Source: Mycobacterium sp. KBS0706 | GTDB lineage: Bacteria > Pseudomonadota > Alphaproteobacteria > DSM-16000 > Inquilinaceae | Direction: 5' to 3' | Length of the DNA: 24,000 nt | Assembly (NCBI RefSeq): GCF_005938675.2 | Contig: NZ_VCCH02000084.1 | Location: forward strand, 1-24,000 | In this document: positions 3,096-20,903 of the stretch, piece after piece | How positions within the stretch are numbered: the stretch's first letter is position 1 | How the letters are laid out: each line of letters begins with the position of its first letter | Notes under the pieces: generated by a model | Database searches by the model: none | Told to the model about the DNA's origin: nothing | The model's input: the letters and a program-made list of their open reading frames with translations, nothing else | Made by a program: the position numbers and the translations under genes

Positions 3096-3424
3096 GCCGT
3101 GCGCTCTTTCGTTATCGTTGTCGTTCCCACCCATGGCCCATGCCGGCTGTCGCCGGTACTGGACTCCGTCCGGCCTTATAGCGATGGAACCGCAAGGGTT
3201 GAAGCCCTTACGACATCGCCGGCCGCATGAAGCCGGGCCAATCCTGGCCAGGGCGAAAATACAGGGCGTTCCGGGGGGCAACAACAGGCCGTGCTGCCGC
3301 GCCGCTCACGCAAATGGTCGCATCCCCTTGGCAAGCGATTCGGCCGCACCGCCGATCGGGGGCTGGCCCCCGCCGGCCGGCGGCACTATGTCTGGAGTCC
3401 AGATTCGCTGACCGGAATCCCGCC

Positions 3425-4858
3425 ATGAGCGTCCTCGACCAGACCGACGACCTGTTCTTCACCCAGGCCGGGCTCGACCGAGCCCGGCTCGAGCGGCTGG
3501 TCGGCGAGGCCCTGCAGGGGGCCGATGACGGCGAGCTGTTCCTGGAATACGTCCAGTCCGAGGGGCTGAGCTGGGACGACGGCAAGCTGAAGAGCGCCAG
3601 CTTCGACACCAGCCAGGGATTCGGCCTGCGCGCGGTGGCCGGCGAGACCACCGGTTACAGCCATGCTTCGACGCTGAGCGAGGATGCGGTCAAGCGGGCC
3701 GTGGAAACGGTGGGCGCGGTCCGCGCCGGCCATGGCGGCAGCCTGGCCGAGCCGCCGCAGGGCACCAACCGGCAGCTCTACACCGACGCCAACCCGCTTT
3801 CGGCCGTGCCGTTCGAGACCAAGGTCAAGGTTCTGGCTGAGATCGACGCCTATGCCCGGGCCAAGGATCCGCGGGTGCGCCAGGTCAGCGCCTCGATCAG
3901 CGGCAACTGGCAGGCGGTGCGGATCATCCGCGCCGATGGCCGGCACGCCGCCGACATCCGGCCGCTGGTGCGGGTCAACGTCTCGGTCGTGGTCGGCGAC
4001 GGCGACCGGATGGAAAGCGGCAGCCATGGCGCCGGCGGCCGCACCGGCTACGATCTCTATCTCGAGCCGGGGCAGTGGCAGGCGGCCGTGGACGAGGCGC
4101 TGCGGCAGGCCCTGGTGCGGCTGGACGCGGTCGAGGCGCCGGCCGGCGAGACCACCGTGGTGCTCGGCCCCGGCTGGCCCGGCATCCTGTTGCACGAGGC
4201 GATCGGCCATGGCCTCGAGGGCGACTTCAACCGTAAGAAGACCTCCGCCTTCTCCGGCCTGATGGGCCAGCGCGTGGCGGCGCCGGGCGTCACCGTGATC
4301 GACGACGGCACCCTGCCGGACCGGCGCGGCAGCCTGACGGTGGACGACGAGGGCACGCCGACCCGCAGCACCACGCTGATCGAGGACGGCATCCTGGTCG
4401 GCTTCATGCAGGACCGGATGAATGCCCGGCTGATGGGCGTGGCGCCGACCGGCAACGGCCGGCGGCAGAGCTATGCGCACCACCCGATGCCGCGGATGAC
4501 CAACACCATCATGCTCGGCGGCGGCACCTCGCCGGCCGAGATCCTGGCCTCGGTCAAGCGCGGCCTCTACGCCGTCAACTTCGCCGGCGGCCAGGTCGAT
4601 ATCACCAACGGCAAGTTCGTGTTCTCCGCCTCCGAGGCCTATCTGATCGAGGACGGAAAGATCGGGCCGGCGGTGAAAGGCGCGACCCTGATCGGCAACG
4701 GGCCTGATGCACTGACCAAGGTTTCGATGGTCGGCGACGACATGGCGCTCGACCCCGGCATCGGCACCTGCGGCAAGGAAGGCCAGGGCGTGCCGGTCGG
4801 CGTCGGCCAGCCGACCCTCAGGATCGACGGGCTGACGGTCGGCGGCACCCGCGCCTGA
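3425..4858 (+). CDS. tldD: Metalloprotease TldD
   Basis: Near end-to-end resemblance to E. coli TldD, including the HEAIGHGLEGD zinc motif and GNGRRQSYAHHPMPRMTNT. The tracked ORF starts at 3227, but the conserved N-terminus begins at the ATG at 3425 (MSVLDQTDDLFF). Confidence 0.93.
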   Translation: MSVLDQTDDLFFTQAGLDRARLERLVGEALQGADDGELFLEYVQSEGLSWDDGKLKSASFDTSQGFGLRAVAGETTGYSHASTLSEDAVKRAVETVGAVRAGHGGSLAEPPQGTNRQLYTDANPLSAVPFETKVKVLAEIDAYARAKDPRVRQVSASISGNWQAVRIIRADGRHAADIRPLVRVNVSVVVGDGDRMESGSHGAGGRTGYDLYLEPGQWQAAVDEALRQALVRLDAVEAPAGETTVVLGPGWPGILLHEAIGHGLEGDFNRKKTSAFSGLMGQRVAAPGVTVIDDGTLPDRRGSLTVDDEGTPTRSTTLIEDGILVGFMQDRMNARLMGVAPTGNGRRQSYAHHPMPRMTNTIMLGGGTSPAEILASVKRGLYAVNFAGGQVDITNGKFVFSASEAYLIEDGKIGPAVKGATLIGNGPDALTKVSMVGDDMALDPGIGTCGKEGQGVPVGVGQPTLRIDGLTVGGTRA

Positions 4859-5106
4859 CCGGTTGCTCTTTCGAACCTCACTGAAGACGGCTTCCTCTCA
4901 CGATCGGTCGTCAAGCACCTTGGCCGATCTTGAATATTATTTTATGTAATTTTGCAAACGATCGGTCCGTTCTGGTTAGATTCGACATACTCCTAACCTC
5001 CTACTCATTTGAGTGGTTCGTCCCTCTTGAACAATTTTACTACTTATGGCGTTATGAAGATGCGCTTTTGGCGTTATTTTATGATAGCTGTTTGGGGGAG
5101 AGAGAC
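4859..5106 (+). promoter_or_regulatory. AT-rich control region upstream of the pilus operon
   Basis: GC drops sharply relative to both flanks. It contains a TATGAT -10-like hexamer (5080-5085) with no good -35. It also has two copies of CTT[A/T]TGGCGTTAT (5043-5055, 5065-5077) spaced 22 bp apart, and a strong SD, GGGGGAGAG, just before the GTG at 5107. Confidence 0.45.
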
Positions 5107-5604
5107 GTGCGTGTCTCGTCGAGTTTTTTGATTGGTGCGGCGATCGCATTCTTGGCGCCAGCCAGTATTGTCCAGGCCGCGACGGCGACCACGACCTTCC
5201 AGGTCACGGCGACCGTACTGAAGTTCTGCATCGTGGTGGCGACGCCGATGGCGTTCGGCAACTACACCAGCTCGACGGTGTCCGAGACGACCTCGGATAT
5301 CACGGTCACCTGCACCAACGGCACGCCTTACGACATCGGCCTCAGCGCCGGCACGGCGGCTGGCGCCACCGTGACCACGCGCCAGATGTCGGGCACCACC
5401 GTCACCGCCGCCCGGCTGAACTACTTCCTTTACAGCGACTCCGGGCGCACCGTGAACTGGGGCGACACGGTGGGCACCGACACGGTCCATATCACCGCCG
5501 GCGCCACCCCGATCATCTCGACCGTCTACGGCCGCGTCCCGGCCGGCCAGTTCGTCGCCCCCGACGCCTATCTCGACACGATCGCCGTCACGGTCACCTA
5601 CTGA
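5107..5604 (+). CDS. Spore-coat-protein-U (SCPU) domain / Csu-type fimbrial major subunit
   Basis: Signal peptide (VRVSSSFLIGAAIAFLAPASIVQA). SCPU-like pattern follows: FGNY ... ITVTCTNGTPYDIGLSAG ... RQM ... LNYFLYSD ... NWGD ... YGRVPAGQ ... YLDTIAVTVTY. The GTG start at 5107 is chosen for its SD; the tracked TTG at 4930 lies in the AT-rich leader. Confidence 0.85.
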   Translation: MRVSSSFLIGAAIAFLAPASIVQAATATTTFQVTATVLKFCIVVATPMAFGNYTSSTVSETTSDITVTCTNGTPYDIGLSAGTAAGATVTTRQMSGTTVTAARLNYFLYSDSGRTVNWGDTVGTDTVHITAGATPIISTVYGRVPAGQFVAPDAYLDTIAVTVTY

Positions 5605-13328: not shown

Positions 13329-13484
13329 CGTTCTCAGGGCGGGGTGAAAGTCCCCACCGGCGGTGATGGCGTGGTCCCGAAACGGCCGCGCACGAGCCCG
13401 CGAGCGCCTGCCGGGCGACCGGCAGGGTCAGCAGATTCGGTCAGAATCCGAAGCCGACGGTCACAGTCCGGATGAAAGAGAACG
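13329..13484 (+). promoter_or_regulatory. FMN riboswitch (RFN element)
   Basis: P1 stem is CGTTCTC (13329-13335) paired with GAGAACG (13478-13484). Conserved core blocks are present: CAGGGCGGGGTGAAAGTCCCCACCGGCGGT, AGCCCGCGAGCG, GGTCAGCAGATTCGGT, CCGAAGCCGACGGT and AGTCCGGATGAAAGAGAA. It lies directly upstream of a riboflavin gene. Confidence 0.93.
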
Positions 13485-13560
13485 GGGACGGCGGGCCGGG
13501 TGCGAATCCTGGCGGTCGGTCCCGTATGCCCTGATTCTGGTCCGTTGCATGAGGATGACC

Positions 13561-14061
13561 ATGAATCAGCCCCTGTCTTCTGCTTCCCGTACCGACACGC
13601 CCCGCATCGCCTTCATCCAGGCGTGCTGGCATCGCGACATCGTCGACCAGTGCAAGACCGCCTTCCTGGCCGAGATCGCCCAGGCTGGCGCCGCGGCCCC
13701 CGAGGTCGATCTGTTCGAGGTGCCGGGCGTGTTCGAGATCCCGCTGCACGCCCAGCTGCTGGCCAAGAGCGGCCGCTACGACGCCATCGTCGCCACCGGC
13801 TTCATCGTCGACGGCGGCATCTATCGGCACGAATTCGTGTCGACCGCGGTGATCGACGCGCTGATGCGGGTGCAGCTCGACACCGAGGTGCCGGTGCTCT
13901 CCGCGGTACTGACGCCGCAGCGCTTCCACGAGCACGAGGCTCACACGGCCTTCTTCCGCGAGCATTTCCTGGTCAAGGGCAAGGAGGCGGCGGAGGCCGC
14001 GCTAAAGACCATCGCCGCGGTGGCGAAGCTGCGCGGCCAGGGCCTGCGCGCGGCGGCCTGA
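13561..14061 (+). CDS. ribH: 6,7-dimethyl-8-ribityllumazine synthase, type 2 (RibH2)
   Basis: Strong resemblance to Brucella-type RibH2 (IAFIQACWHRDIVD ... EVPGVFEIPLHA ... GRYDAIVATGFIVDGGIYRHEFV ... VPVLSAVLTP). The start is set at the ATG at 13561 (MNQ...), 5 nt after SD GAGGA. In-frame ATGs at 13549 and 13555 are alternatives. Confidence 0.9.
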   Translation: MNQPLSSASRTDTPRIAFIQACWHRDIVDQCKTAFLAEIAQAGAAAPEVDLFEVPGVFEIPLHAQLLAKSGRYDAIVATGFIVDGGIYRHEFVSTAVIDALMRVQLDTEVPVLSAVLTPQRFHEHEAHTAFFREHFLVKGKEAAEAALKTIAAVAKLRGQGLRAAA

Positions 14062-18624: not shown

Positions 18625-18684
18625 GGCTTTCCGCCGGCCGTTCCCGTGCCTATCTTCCAGCCGACGAGACAGGAAGACCGACCG

Positions 18685-19179
18685 ATGTTCCAGACCGCAC
18701 GCCCCGATCCCGCCCTGTCGAAGGCGGAGGCCTATCGCGACCTGCTCTCCCAGGCGGAGGGGCTGTTCCAGGGCGAGACCGACGCCATCGCCAACGCAGC
18801 CAACCTCTCGGCCCTGATCTATCACGGCCTGCCGGAGCTGAACTGGGCCGGCTTCTACCTGCTGCGCAGCGAAAGCGAGCTGGTGCTCGGGCCGTTCCAG
18901 GGCAAGCCGGCCTGCATCCGCATCCCGCTCGGCCGCGGCGTCTGCGGCACGGCGGCGGAGCGCCGGGAATCGGTGCTGGTGCCGGATGTGCACGCCTTCC
19001 CAGGGCACATCGCCTGCGACGCCGCCTCGCGCTCCGAGCTGGTGGTGCCGCTGCTGCGGGACGGGAAGGTGCTGGGCGTGCTCGACCTCGACAGCCCGCT
19101 GCCCAACCGCTTCGACGCCGAGGACCAGGCCGGGATCGAGGCGCTCGCGGCGCTGTGGGTGGCCGCGAGCGCCGCCTGA
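18685..19179 (+). CDS. msrC: GAF-domain free methionine-(R)-sulfoxide reductase (YebR/MsrC-like)
   Basis: Close resemblance to E. coli YebR (NWAGFYLL ... LVLGPFQGKPACIRIPLGRGVCGTAA ... FPGHIACDAASRSELVVPL ... GVLDLDS). ATG at 18685 behind SD AGGAAG. Confidence 0.85.
   Translation: MFQTARPDPALSKAEAYRDLLSQAEGLFQGETDAIANAANLSALIYHGLPELNWAGFYLLRSESELVLGPFQGKPACIRIPLGRGVCGTAAERRESVLVPDVHAFPGHIACDAASRSELVVPLLRDGKVLGVLDLDSPLPNRFDAEDQAGIEALAALWVAASAA
19168..19179. repeat. Left copy of the islet-flanking direct repeat, AGCGCCGCCTGA (last codons plus stop of msrC)
   Basis: Matches 20336-20347 (AGCGTCGCCTGA) at 11 of 12 positions. The GC drop begins at the next base. Confidence 0.45.
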
Positions 19180-19288
19180 TTATCTTCCTGTCGAGCCTGT
19201 GATTTTCAGAATCTTAAGCTACTGGCTGATGAGGGCCGGCTGTTCGGTTGATTCCGATTCTCAAGACTCTTTCTTAGAAAATTGATTC

Positions 19289-19297
19289 TGCTAAAAT
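19289..19297 (+). promoter_or_regulatory. Extended -10 promoter element TGCTAAAAT for the methyltransferase gene
   Basis: TGnTAAAAT lies 24 nt upstream of the ATG at 19321, followed by SD GGAGG (19311-19315). There is no convincing -35, which is consistent with an extended -10 promoter. Confidence 0.4.
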
Positions 19298-19320
19298 TCT
19301 CCCGAAAGATGGAGGGGAAT

Positions 19321-19914
19321 ATGGACCGAACGTATAATCTCAACGGTGGCTTCAAGCCCACGACGAAGCGATTTGCCGATTTAGATGGACCAGATTTTTA
19401 CCCGACCCCTCGTTGGGCGACATTTGCGCTGGCCGAGAGCGAGCCATTCAAGGGCGAGATTTGGGAATGTGCCTGTGGCGACGGCGCGATGTCAGATGTC
19501 CTCGTAGAATCTGGTAGCCGTGTAACTAGCTCTGATCTGTATGATCGCGGCTATGGAGAGGCGGGGCAAGATTTTATCAAAGTTAATCGAAAGCATAGAA
19601 ATATCATAACCAATCCTCCTTTCCATAGTGCTGAGGCTTTTGTGGCTTCGGCATTGAGTAAAGCTGAAGAAAAATTTGCTCTCTTGCTTCGACTTGCTTT
19701 TCTAGAGGGCGCAAATAGAACGAGGACAATTTTTCACACAGCGCCCCCGAGCCGTGTTTGGGTGTTTAGTGAGAGAATCACATTCTACCCCAAGGGGGTG
19801 AAAGCCACAGGAAGTGGTACCACCGCTTACGCGTGGTTCGTCTGGGATAAGAACCATGCCGGTTCGACTGAACTGGCATGGCTCAAGCCAGGATATAAGG
19901 CAAAGTACAGTTAG
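19321..19914 (+). CDS. Small gamma-class N6-adenine (amino) methyltransferase, probably acting on DNA
   Basis: 197 aa. Motifs occur in the order FYPTP (aa 26-30), ECACGDG (SAM motif I, aa 49-55), SSDLYD (aa 70-75), ITNPPF (motif IV, aa 96-101), then AYAWFVW near the C-terminus. ATG at 19321 with SD; the tracked TTG at 19282 is unlikely. Confidence 0.75.
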   Translation: MDRTYNLNGGFKPTTKRFADLDGPDFYPTPRWATFALAESEPFKGEIWECACGDGAMSDVLVESGSRVTSSDLYDRGYGEAGQDFIKVNRKHRNIITNPPFHSAEAFVASALSKAEEKFALLLRLAFLEGANRTRTIFHTAPPSRVWVFSERITFYPKGVKATGSGTTAYAWFVWDKNHAGSTELAWLKPGYKAKYS

Positions 19915-19919
19915 AAAAA

Positions 19920-20222
19920 TTATCTGCCTACAGCCGCCCGACCAGCGGCTGTAATCCTAAGTCCCTTATTGTTATCGTCATATTCAAGTAAGCCATTATT
20001 TATCGGATTGGTTGATGTTTCTCTGTGAGAGATAATGTTTCTGACGATCTGAGTGAATCGAATATCTGAGCGATTCATCAAAATTTCCGCGTCAGGCCCA
20101 GTTGGGTTAAAAGAATCAACCAAATGCTTGATAATATCGGAGGTTTTCATAAATCCGGTGCTTGATTCGGAAAGCAACTTCAATATAGGGACTGTGAGTT
20201 CCTTCTCTTCTGTAATTGACAT
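19920..20222 (-). CDS. Standalone winged-helix protein resembling the N-terminal domain of Mrr-type restriction proteins
   Basis: 100 aa. The pattern PILKLLSESSTGFMKTSDIIKHLVDSF ... IRFTQIVRNIISH ... GLLEYDDNNKGLRITAAG fits Mrr_N-like wHTH by my recognition only. SD AGGAGAAG precedes the ATG at 20222. AT-rich codon usage matches the neighbouring methyltransferase gene. Confidence 0.55.
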   Translation of the reverse strand: MSITEEKELTVPILKLLSESSTGFMKTSDIIKHLVDSFNPTGPDAEILMNRSDIRFTQIVRNIISHRETSTNPINNGLLEYDDNNKGLRITAAGRAAVGR

Positions 20223-20291
20223 GTCTTCTCCTATTGGAAAGTAACGTTCAAAAATTCCGTCTCGGAAATGCGATATGAAGACGGCTGGATA

Positions 20292-20300
20292 ACTATAGCA
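20292..20300 (-). promoter_or_regulatory. Extended -10 promoter element TGCTATAGT for the winged-helix gene
   Basis: The reverse complement of ACTATAGCA reads TGCTATAGT, about 70 nt upstream of the ATG at 20222. A 6-bp inverted repeat, CCGTCT/AGACGG (20257-20284), lies in the predicted leader. Confidence 0.35.
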
Positions 20301-20335
20301 GAGGCCGCAGAGCAGAAAAAGAAGCAGTGGTATAT

Positions 20336-20347
20336 AGCGTCGCCTGA
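20336..20347. repeat. Right copy of the islet-flanking direct repeat, AGCGTCGCCTGA
   Basis: Matches 19168-19179 at 11 of 12 positions. It lies at the point where GC content returns to host level, 4 nt before the greB stop codon. Confidence 0.45.
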
Positions 20348-20351
20348 CGGC

Positions 20352-20903
20352 TCAGCCTTTCTCGTACCGGATCTCGATGACCTCGGCGGTCTCCACGCCG
20401 CCAGGGGCGCGGACCTCGACCACGTCGCCCTCCTGCGCCCGCATCAGGGCGCGGGCGAGGGGGGAGATCCAGCTGATCTCGCCCTCTTCCGGCCGGGTCT
20501 CGTCGATGCCGACGATGCGCACCGTGCGCTCGCGGTCCTGGCCGTCGACATAGGTGACGGTGGCGCCGAAATACACCCGGTCGCGGTTGGTCTGGCGCGC
20601 CGGGTCGACCACCTCGGCGATCTCCAGCCGTTTGGTCAGGAACCGCACCCGGCGGTCGATCTCGCGCAGCCGCTTCTTGCCGTAGATGTAGTCGCCATTC
20701 TCCGACCGATCGCCGTTGCCGGCGGCCCAGGACACCACCTCGACCACCTTCGGCCGCTCGACCCGCCACAGCTGCTTCAACTCGTCCTGCAGCCGCTGGA
20801 AGCCCTCGGGCGTGATGTAGTTCTTCGACCCCGCGGGCAGGGGCGCCGGCGCATCGTCCAGCTCCTCCTCGGTGTCGGTCTCTTTGGTGAAAGCCTTGCT
20901 CAT
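20352..20903 (-). CDS. greB: Transcription elongation factor GreB
   Basis: [35 protein letters not shown] closely matches E. coli GreB ([33 protein letters not shown]). It has an acidic N-terminal extension of about 25 aa. Confidence 0.88.
   Translation of the reverse strand: [183 protein letters not shown]

Follow-up and report, generated by a model that had tools for sequence, protein, structure and literature searches.

The 24,000-nucleotide stretch of DNA analysed here (the window; positions 1 to 24,000 of contig NZ_VCCH02000084.1 from the genome named Mycobacterium sp. KBS0706) carries an island of about 1.17 kb and low guanine-plus-cytosine (GC) content, whose gene content is exactly one small methyltransferase (MTase) gene and one convergent gene for a standalone winged-helix protein (the partner), both annotated "hypothetical" in the source genome. 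The pair recurs without a nuclease in well over a hundred alphaproteobacterial genomes and is a conserved module under purifying selection, not a remnant. Our leading interpretation, which we hold tentatively and rate slightly short of an even chance, is that the island is a nuclease-free cassette derived from restriction-modification (R-M) systems, combining a writer of N6-methyladenine (m6A) at GANTC-type sites with a methylation-sensing winged-helix regulator. Its principal features are as follows (aa, amino acids; dN/dS, ratio of nonsynonymous to synonymous substitution rates).

Positions 19180–20335, no strand: horizontally acquired low-GC island, recognised by its GC drop and by the empty site in Inquilinus limosus.
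Positions 19321–19914, forward strand: small (197 aa), gamma-like N6-adenine DNA MTase, assigned from phrog_799, homology to PhiLM21_p027, its fold, and a dN/dS of 0.08.
Positions 19920–20222, reverse strand: standalone Mrr_N-like winged-helix protein of 100 aa, assigned from Pfam Mrr_N, AlphaFold, and its linkage to the MTase; a putative methylation reader or regulator.

The island is bordered by a GAF-domain gene (18646–19179) and greB (20352–20903), and its GC content is 0.39–0.55 against about 0.70 in the flanks. The gene order xseA-purD-greB-GAF-arsR-phzF is identical in Inquilinus limosus (locus L185), where the greB-GAF junction has no island and holds 178 nt of GC-rich palindromic spacer instead; homology between the window and L185 ends at the GAF stop codon (19179) and restarts at about 20333. 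Because this syntenic site is empty in I. limosus, the 1.17-kb, two-gene island is a recent insertion or replacement. An earlier reading of the same DNA, made from the letters and their open reading frames (ORFs) without database searches (the original prediction), had called the two genes a self-contained cassette, which is correct since the island holds only these genes and is absent from the I. limosus junction. It had also placed both ORFs, with their strands and sizes, where we find them, and had noted that endonuclease, Xre controller, and recombinase were all missing; library scans bear this out, as ORF, Pfam, NCBIfam, PHROGs, and PADLOC checks detected no nuclease, Xre protein, or recombinase in the island. 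Scans for tRNAs and Rfam RNAs found none within it, and a hidden RNA element was rejected for want of Rfam matches.

The neighbourhood survey that the original prediction had proposed was carried out from both genes. A scan of one genome per species, seeded with the MTase, gave 80 alphaproteobacterial loci (56–81% identity), in 72 of which an iterated hidden Markov model (HMM) search placed the partner directly downstream and convergent; it lies upstream in one more, and one locus without a partner is a contig end. Seeding with the partner gave 80 metagenomic loci: in 54 the small MTase lies next to the partner in convergent orientation and in one it lies in tandem, 11 contigs are too short to judge, and most others are longer nuclease fusions. 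On viral-labelled contigs, the MTase adjoins nine of nine short partner forms, and these are just nine cassettes among 2.9 million viral contigs. The genes lie tail-to-tail, with stop codons 5 bp apart in the window, as predicted, and a modal stop-to-stop distance of −4 nt in the genomic cassettes. Flanks vary by lineage (mutL, purA, a Thoeris-like locus, lepA, exbBD) and the cassette averages 0.11 lower in GC than its flanks (76 loci), while some lineages hold it at one site, e.g., lepA in seven Rhodobacterales loci. That the two genes form a unit outside the canonical type I–IV layouts, as the original prediction had proposed, is borne out by these tail-to-tail homologues in many unrelated contexts.

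Among cassettes, identity ranges from 56% to 83% for the MTase and from 25% to 58% for the partner. Across 85 pairs, none of which reaches 0.5, dN/dS has a median of 0.08 in the MTase and of 0.14 in the partner, falling to 0.00–0.03 for the standalone partners of a Rhizobiaceae trio, and the reading frame and length of the partner are preserved across more than 130 loci. A few loci show signs of decay: in L079 (4570–5403), an IS3-like transposase directly follows the MTase and no partner is present, and in L084 (3992–4640), the MTase is frameshifted and the partner intact. In the two MTase copies of Xanthobacter sp. KR7-65 (L059 and L060, 4636–4842, reverse strand), a convergent 68-aa ORF, which is unrelated to the winged helix and has no Pfam match, takes the place of the partner and may be a non-homologous substitute for it. 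Fragments of IS1595/ISXO2-like transposases lie right upstream of the MTase in L011, L018, L023, L026, L037, L040, L055, and L076, and a single representative protein (P0171) fuses an IS1595 zinc ribbon to the winged helix; the association with IS1595 may reflect a vehicle of the cassette or a gene-calling artefact.

The start of the MTase was taken as the ATG at 19321, not the TTG at 19282 with which the mechanical ORF begins, because all homologues open with MDxTYNLNGG. The motifs FYPTP, ECACGDG, SSDLYD, and NPPF follow one another in the gamma-like order X-I-II-IV; NPPF occupies residues 98–101 and 96 residues remain C-terminal of it, so that the predicted motif order and the roughly 96 aa after motif IV are exact. 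Like the methylase of a type II R-M system, the protein carries both the catalytic NPPF and the S-adenosylmethionine-binding ECACGDG. PHROGs assigns it to phrog_799, "DNA methyltransferase" (E 4e-58); Pfam and NCBIfam gave sub-threshold matches only, including weak ones to Pfam MTS and NCBIfam Erm/RsmC. A sequence search found over 7,800 homologues, thousands of them unnamed, and homologues are present in 571 phage records. Against PhiLM21_p027, an enzyme of Sinorhizobium phage PhiLM21, BLASTP gave a collinear, full-length alignment of the MTase (E 1e-33; 189 aa at 38% identity).

GANTC methylation, i.e., at the CcrM site, has been shown experimentally for PhiLM21_p027 (PMC5537653), and three 179-aa prophage MTases of Paracoccus aminophilus (JCM7686_1231, 2255, and 2934) also methylate GANTC (PMC5537653, PMC3925955). 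PhiLM21_p027 and the P. aminophilus enzymes do so when each is expressed on its own in E. coli (PMC5537653, PMC3925955). Judged from this homology, the target of the window MTase is probably GANTC as well. Because equally tiny homologues methylate GANTC on their own in E. coli, a separate recognition subunit should not be required, and the window MTase appears to work without its partner in sequence recognition. It has nevertheless to be considered that the partner is a target-recognition subunit for a methylase without such a domain, by analogy with HsdS and HsdM. Only about 96 residues follow motif IV, with no recognisable recognition domain, the difference in conservation between MTase (56–83%) and partner (25–58%) resembles that between HsdM and HsdS, and the conserved N-terminal 26 residues of the MTase, disordered in the model, could dock. 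We regard this arrangement as very improbable in view of the GANTC specificity of equally small homologues on their own in E. coli and of hundreds of phage homologues without a partner; moreover, the genes are convergent and not co-transcribed, and the presumed recognition helix is the most conserved part of the partner, where a variable specificity predicts the opposite.

These N-terminal residues (1–26; 19321–19398) are near-invariant across the cassette clade (including D2, Y5, G9, P13, K16, and R17) and were modelled as disordered by AlphaFold, with a predicted local distance difference test (pLDDT) below 50. The first 15 lie outside the alignment with PhiLM21_p027, which opens at residue 16. 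The segment could be a docking or DNA-clamping peptide.

The AlphaFold model of the MTase has a Rossmann amino-methyltransferase fold (pLDDT 72), and a PDB sequence search detected no solved structure related to it by sequence. An enzyme acting on RNA or protein, in the manner of the TrmM-, METTL5-, or RsmC-like NPPF enzymes, with the winged helix as an unrelated small regulator, would be in keeping with the tRNA and rRNA m6A/m2G enzymes among the top structural matches and with the weak MTS and Erm/RsmC matches. We judge it highly improbable: M.TaqI ranks with the top folds too, significant sequence similarity is confined to phage DNA methylases, one of them experimentally verified, the GANTC signal in the promoter (see below) is strong and specific, and the MTase is associated with Mrr_N, an R-M domain. 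The structural check that the original prediction had suggested thus gave a winged helix for the partner and an amino-methyltransferase for the MTase; the fold cannot separate DNA from RNA MTases because both kinds match, and the sequence relatives, which group the MTase with DNA enzymes rather than with RNA enzymes, decide for DNA.

The region upstream of the MTase gene is laden with GANTC, a feature not contained in the original prediction. The signals around the two genes are the following.

Positions 19209–19288, forward strand: cluster of five GANTC sites in the MTase promoter region (at 19209, 19250, 19256, 19265, and 19284).
Positions 19289–19297, forward strand: presumed extended −10 element of the MTase gene, TGCTAAAAT, which aligns with −10-like elements of other cassettes.
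Positions 20292–20300, reverse strand: presumed extended −10 element of the partner gene, TGCTATAGT, inside a 16-nt stretch that resembles the MTase −10 region.
Positions 20255–20267, reverse strand: small hairpin followed by a T-run in the 5′ leader of the partner gene, a terminator-like match.

The five sites compare with 0.52 expected in 141 nt (P<0.0005). The motif GATTCTCAAGACTCTTTC lies immediately 5′ of the presumed −35 element, and the last GATTC abuts the extended −10 element. Across the cassettes, the 120 nt upstream of 114 non-redundant MTase genes contain 178 GANTC sites against 48.9 expected (z 18.5), and nine control palindromes show no enrichment in the same 114 regions. The sites are bimodally distributed, at −60 to −79 and at −20 to −39 from the MTase start codon, which is just 5′ of the presumed −35 and around the −10 element, and their spacings peak at 9–10 and 29–31 nt. 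GANTC is depleted in both coding regions (z −8.3 and −5.2 against synonymous-codon permutation). The whole window has 45 GANTC sites where 97 ± 9 are expected from composition, and 11 of the 45 fall inside the 1.17-kb island. Avoidance in genes together with concentration in the promoter is the pattern expected of regulatory methylation sites. Small GANTC clusters also occur elsewhere in the window (3337–3419 and 13434–13567) and may mark other methylation-regulated intergenic regions.

Each gene had been credited in the original prediction with a strong Shine-Dalgarno (SD) sequence and its own extended −10 element. SD-like sequences are present ahead of the MTase (GGAGGGG, 19311–19317) and of the partner (AGGAG, 20228–20232, reverse strand), as are the −10 sequences; a strict sigma-70 consensus scan called neither TGCTAAAAT nor TGCTATAGT as a promoter, for which reason the promoter function of both elements is here presumed. 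The −10 regions of the two genes, TCTGCTAAAATTCTCC at 19287–19302 and TCTGCTATAGTTATCC at 20287–20302, are identical in 13 of 16 positions and form an inverted repeat (I3); the shared 16-mer is not general among cassettes. Partner promoters have a modest excess of GANTC (z 2.4), mostly 50–69 nt upstream of the start codon. A conserved motif upstream of the partner was considered and rejected, as the sequences there are heterogeneous and share no more than this excess. When cassettes are divided by partner subtype, GATTCNCA is found in 32 of 93 F-type and in 0 of 20 W-type cassettes.

The partner aligns with Pfam Mrr_N (PF14338) over positions 3–85 of 87 (E 0.0046). Mrr_N is matched by 52 of 117 members of the partner family (E<=0.01; best 6.3e-10), and several relatives carry a precomputed PF14338 assignment. 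Going by these profile matches, the partner probably belongs to a divergent branch of Mrr_N, and the Mrr_N-like character ascribed to it in the original prediction holds at family level and is supported by the winged-helix model, while the window protein itself scores below the Pfam threshold. AlphaFold2 modelled it as a winged helix with the topology H-S-H-H-S-S-H (pLDDT 83), and its top Foldseek matches are MarR, forkhead, E2F/DP, and PadR, with probabilities of 0.97–1.0 but E>0.09. The invariant residues R51, Q58, N62, and H66 are assigned to a long helix (H45–65), the presumed recognition helix; position 56 is almost always F or W. The family numbers 308 representative clusters in a full HMMER scan and 259 proteins in a profile search, mostly of about 100 aa. 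An orphan gene, suggested by the single match of a word-indexed search, was rejected given the hundreds of matches from the HMMER and profile searches.

As had been predicted, the partner has no catalytic domain. The possibility of a hidden nuclease or known defence protein was rejected, since Pfam, NCBIfam, PHROGs, PADLOC, PDB sequence, and Foldseek searches pointed to a winged helix only. PADLOC has no model that matches the protein, the Mrr_cat PD-(D/E)XK nuclease domain is absent from its 100 aa, a standalone length that is conserved, and Pfam gave no HTH_3/Xre match for the window partner, HTH_3 being fused to the domain in some relatives only. Prokaryotic winged-helix domains are known to read m6A in DpnI, HhiV4I, and winged-helix (wH)-HNH enzymes of 224–283 aa, and the known repertoire of m6A readers has been termed "surprisingly limited" in a review (PMC11037411).

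The standalone form of about 100 aa, as in the window, is the dominant form of the domain, which also occurs in several longer architectures. In 11 Acetobacteraceae loci it follows an Xre helix-turn-helix (HTH) in proteins of about 180 aa. In a second variant it is fused to DUF7683 (223 aa) and preceded, with a 4-nt overlap, by an 88-aa gene for a colicin-E3-like protein (Pfam Cytotoxic, PF09000, E 5e-26). The example in L022 reads as follows.

L022, positions 5315–5581, reverse strand: toxin gene.
L022, positions 4647–5318, reverse strand: DUF7683-winged-helix gene, convergent with the MTase.

The toxin variant is present in L024, L027–L031, L033, L034, L046, and L084 as well, in all at least 11 genomic loci, and in many metagenome loci. 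Its order, a toxin followed by an immunity-like protein with a DNA-binding domain, resembles an antitoxin-like layout, and DUF7683 is probably the immunity domain for the colicin-E3-like toxin; we found no description of an immunity role for it in the literature. A further variant joins an N-terminal domain without assignment to the winged helix and is preceded by a 105-aa ORF. Others combine the winged helix with HNH (about 250 aa) or with a PD-(D/E)XK-like tail (about 300 aa). These nuclease fusions adjoin not the small MTase but D12-class adenine methylases, which are unusually long (382–391 aa), at L129 (99–2412, forward strand), L142/L153/L007 (2992–5585), L157/L161/L166, and L156/L163. 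In L129, a standalone copy stands between the D12-class methylase and the winged-helix-HNH gene, which is the position of a controller gene. One nuclease-fusion locus is in a Monoglobales gut phage, and L157 also has RE_TdeIII and a 663-aa double methylase as neighbours. The wH-HNH enzymes known from publications depend on methylation and seldom lie next to methylases, which makes the methylase-adjacent pairs noteworthy.

Longer relatives of this kind, which stand beside methylases and join the domain to HNH or another nuclease-like domain, are what could be cited for a decaying R-M remnant, with the 100-aa ORF as the functionless leftover of a winged-helix-nuclease gene, the decayed stump of the original prediction. 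Selection and distribution largely refute it already. The standalone form dominates and keeps frame and length across more than 130 loci, rather than aligning only as a fragment of longer Mrr-like genes, its dN/dS is 0.14 (0.00–0.03 in the Rhizobiaceae trio), and the methylases found with the nuclease fusions are of another family, the D12 class; as both genes are under purifying selection, we set the stump aside as barely plausible.

The same architectures lend themselves to another explanation, namely a nuclease-free self/non-self or addiction module in which the winged helix senses whether GANTC is methylated, either throughout the genome or on DNA entering the cell. It would act by occlusion, silencing, or cis effectors (toxin-immunity, HNH), the methylase would mark self, and the window would hold an effector-less form; both this function and this mode of action seem to us unlikely, though far less so than decay. 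The domain is tied to a colicin-E3-like rRNase through the fused DUF7683 at no fewer than 11 genomic loci, occurs in fusions with HNH or PD-(D/E)XK-like nucleases next to adenine methylases, and has the patchy, island-like distribution typical of defence genes, one copy (L002) lying beside a Thoeris-like locus; type IV enzymes are, moreover, driven by winged-helix m6A readers (PMC11037411). Yet no effector accompanies the window form, PADLOC does not recognise the partner, and GANTC would be a poor self mark because the DNA of the host, through CcrM, and that of many alphaproteobacterial phages is already GANTC-methylated. Stable synteny in some lineages (the seven Rhodobacterales loci at lepA) fits a housekeeping-like role equally well.

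More broadly, the Mrr_N-like winged helix might be a portable sensor of the adenine-methylation state that links a private GANTC methylase to interchangeable outputs, a bolder proposal that we consider doubtful, if somewhat less so than the self/non-self or addiction module. The outputs would be nothing in the window form, an Xre HTH, an immunity-held colicin-E3-like rRNase, or an HNH or PD-(D/E)XK-like nuclease, a list for which our confidence is just as low.

The cassette shares parts with several known systems. The phage and prophage MTases of "CcrM-like specificity" resemble the window MTase in motif order, NPP[FYW], and size (179–218 aa) and share alphaproteobacterial hosts with the cassette. 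They differ in lying in replication modules, co-directional with their neighbours and without a winged-helix partner, whereas the window island is without phage genes and is flanked by GAF and greB, both core genes; PhiLM21_p027 also has no GANTC-rich promoter. Cassette MTases form their own clade (56–83% mutual identity, less than 60% to any phage record) and, unlike the phage enzymes, have the conserved extra N-terminal peptide and occupy isolated chromosomal islands of 1.1 kb. To type II R-M systems regulated by a controller (C) protein, the cassette is similar as a compact mobile unit of a methylase and a small DNA-binding protein in convergent orientation, and further through the C-gene position in L129 and the Xre-type HTH on some partners. 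It has no endonuclease, however, and an Mrr_N-type winged helix in place of an Xre-family C protein: the cognate endonuclease is absent from the island, Pfam, NCBIfam, PHROGs, and PADLOC give no nuclease match for either gene, and no C-box-like shared or conserved operator was detected in the cassette promoters.

Mrr-type (type IV) enzymes consist of Mrr_N and Mrr_cat, while the partner is the Mrr_N-like domain alone. With the m6A-reader nucleases (DpnI, HhiV4I, wH-HNH, wH-GIY-YIG, as well as the Mrr N-domain), it shares the winged-helix fold and the proximity to Mrr_N, and its winged-helix-HNH relatives of about 250 aa have the architecture of the published 224–283-aa enzymes; it differs in being standalone without a nuclease and in having no detectable sequence similarity to DpnI. 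The published reader fusions are rarely beside methylases, whereas the partner domain nearly always is. The two methyl groups of GANTC lie 1 bp further apart than in the m6ApT step read by DpnI. Type II toxin-antitoxin systems resemble the three-gene variant, in which the toxin comes first and the antitoxin has a C-terminal DNA-binding domain; the window cassette has no toxin ORF, and the winged helix is tied to a methylase in every variant, a link that ordinary toxin-antitoxin modules lack.

In Alphaproteobacteria, the methylation of GANTC by CcrM belongs to the core signals of the cell cycle, and ccrM's own promoter is sensitive to methylation. The cassette MTase has in common with CcrM the probable writing of m6A at GANTC, GANTC sites in its own promoter, and avoidance of the site in coding sequence. 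CcrM is a beta-class core enzyme of about 360 aa, whereas the window MTase is gamma-like, has 197 aa, shows no Pfam match to PF01555 (beta-class N6_N4_Mtase), and is a mobile accessory with a dedicated winged-helix partner. Of all this, the MTase family, which is partly characterised, and Mrr_N, of which the partner appears to be a divergent member, are known already; an incomplete search of the literature brought up no account of the two genes as an obligately paired mobile unit, of the GANTC-rich promoter, or of the toxin and nuclease variants.

How the writer and the regulator of our preferred reading might work together can be outlined as follows. The first gene, a minimal N6-adenine MTase of phage type, would methylate GANTC, the site of CcrM. 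In related systems, the Mrr_N-type winged helix would serve HNH or PD-(D/E)XK-like nucleases, located next to adenine methylases, as the part that recognises DNA, a position in which it would have to tell methylated from unmethylated DNA; in the second gene, it would act as a regulator sensitive to the methylation state, comparable to a controller protein. MTase output would reach the GANTC sites in the promoter of the MTase, and because these are positionally fixed around −35 and −10, we propose that this output feeds back on the transcription of the MTase itself. Convergent, often overlapping transcription would add coupling between the two genes. To describe the cassette as a compact, horizontally mobile "writer plus reader/regulator" seems to us close to an even call, on the lower side of it. 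Two readings of the original prediction, an uncharacterised writer-plus-reader module and an orphan phage-type methylase with a private regulator, both fit and merge into this one model, given the phage-type m6A family that includes the GANTC-specific PhiLM21_p027 and the Mrr_N-type fold with its precedent as an m6A reader (PMC11037411). What the original prediction did not contain, besides the GANTC-laden promoter, is the probable link to GANTC and CcrM and the variant architectures.

Several points weigh against the combination of GANTC writer and methylation-sensing regulator. On the side of the MTase, 38% identity to PhiLM21_p027 is no guarantee of identical specificity, and the fold search mixes TrmM-like, METTL5, and KsgA/Erm chains with M.TaqI. 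On the side of the partner, the Mrr_N score of 17.5 bits is below the curated (gathering) threshold of 29.5 bits, sequence comparison related it neither to the winged helix of DpnI nor to a solved structure, and the reading of DNA and of a methyl mark that we ascribe to it is putative. In the promoters, the window's own partner promoter is without a GANTC site, and a shared operator in the two promoters of a cassette was rejected (matched 10.21 versus mismatched 10.06 of 14, p 0.03). The co-variation of partner subtype and promoter motif is suggestive and is confounded by shared descent, and the reader of the GANTC sites in the promoter could be a host factor (CcrM, GcrA, or sigma-70) rather than the partner.

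At the insertion site itself, no integrase, transposase, or terminal inverted repeat was found. The island is bounded by two copies of a 12-nt near-perfect direct repeat, 1168 nt apart from start to start, of which the right copy is partly ancestral; the repeat may be an insertion microhomology, or chance.

Positions 19168–19179, forward strand: left copy, AGCGCCGCCTGA, at the 3′ end of the GAF gene.
Positions 20336–20347, forward strand: right copy, AGCGTCGCCTGA, directly before the greB stop codon.

The empty greB-GAF spacer of I. limosus (L185, 4553–4730) consists of GC-rich nested palindromes, CTCTCCCCGAGGAGAGGG and CTCTCCTTGGGGAGAGG, that look like a repetitive extragenic palindromic (REP) element, which the cassette has replaced in the window strain. 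The NCBI name of the source, Mycobacterium sp. KBS0706, would place it in the Actinomycetota. Its GreB is at least 90% identical to proteins of I. limosus and other Inquilinus, the 90%-identity cluster of GreB is otherwise all Inquilinus, GC content is about 70%, and the gene order matches Inquilinus. Because GreB cluster, GC content, and gene order point to Inquilinus, the taxonomic label looks wrong and the source genome looks like that of an Inquilinus-like alphaproteobacterium (Rhodospirillales).

A mobile second writer of GANTC type, with its own partner and a GANTC-laden promoter, would amount to an accessory element that senses or rewrites the cell-cycle signal of CcrM. Should the partner turn out to recognise the mark, bacteria would have in this 100-aa protein a small standalone reader of m6A in DNA. 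The variant architectures suggest that parts of R-M systems are re-used as regulators, addiction modules, and nucleases. Were the winged helix indeed a portable sensor, it would mark out a modular family, not recognised before, of epigenetic systems for self/non-self discrimination or addiction, the two-gene form would be a nuclease-free silencing "restriction" device or an epigenetic switch, and the CcrM/GcrA cell-cycle methylation clock of the host would be overridden. The importance of the cassette would rise if its partner proved to read m6A as a standalone protein or if the cell-cycle signal of CcrM were perturbed by the cassette.

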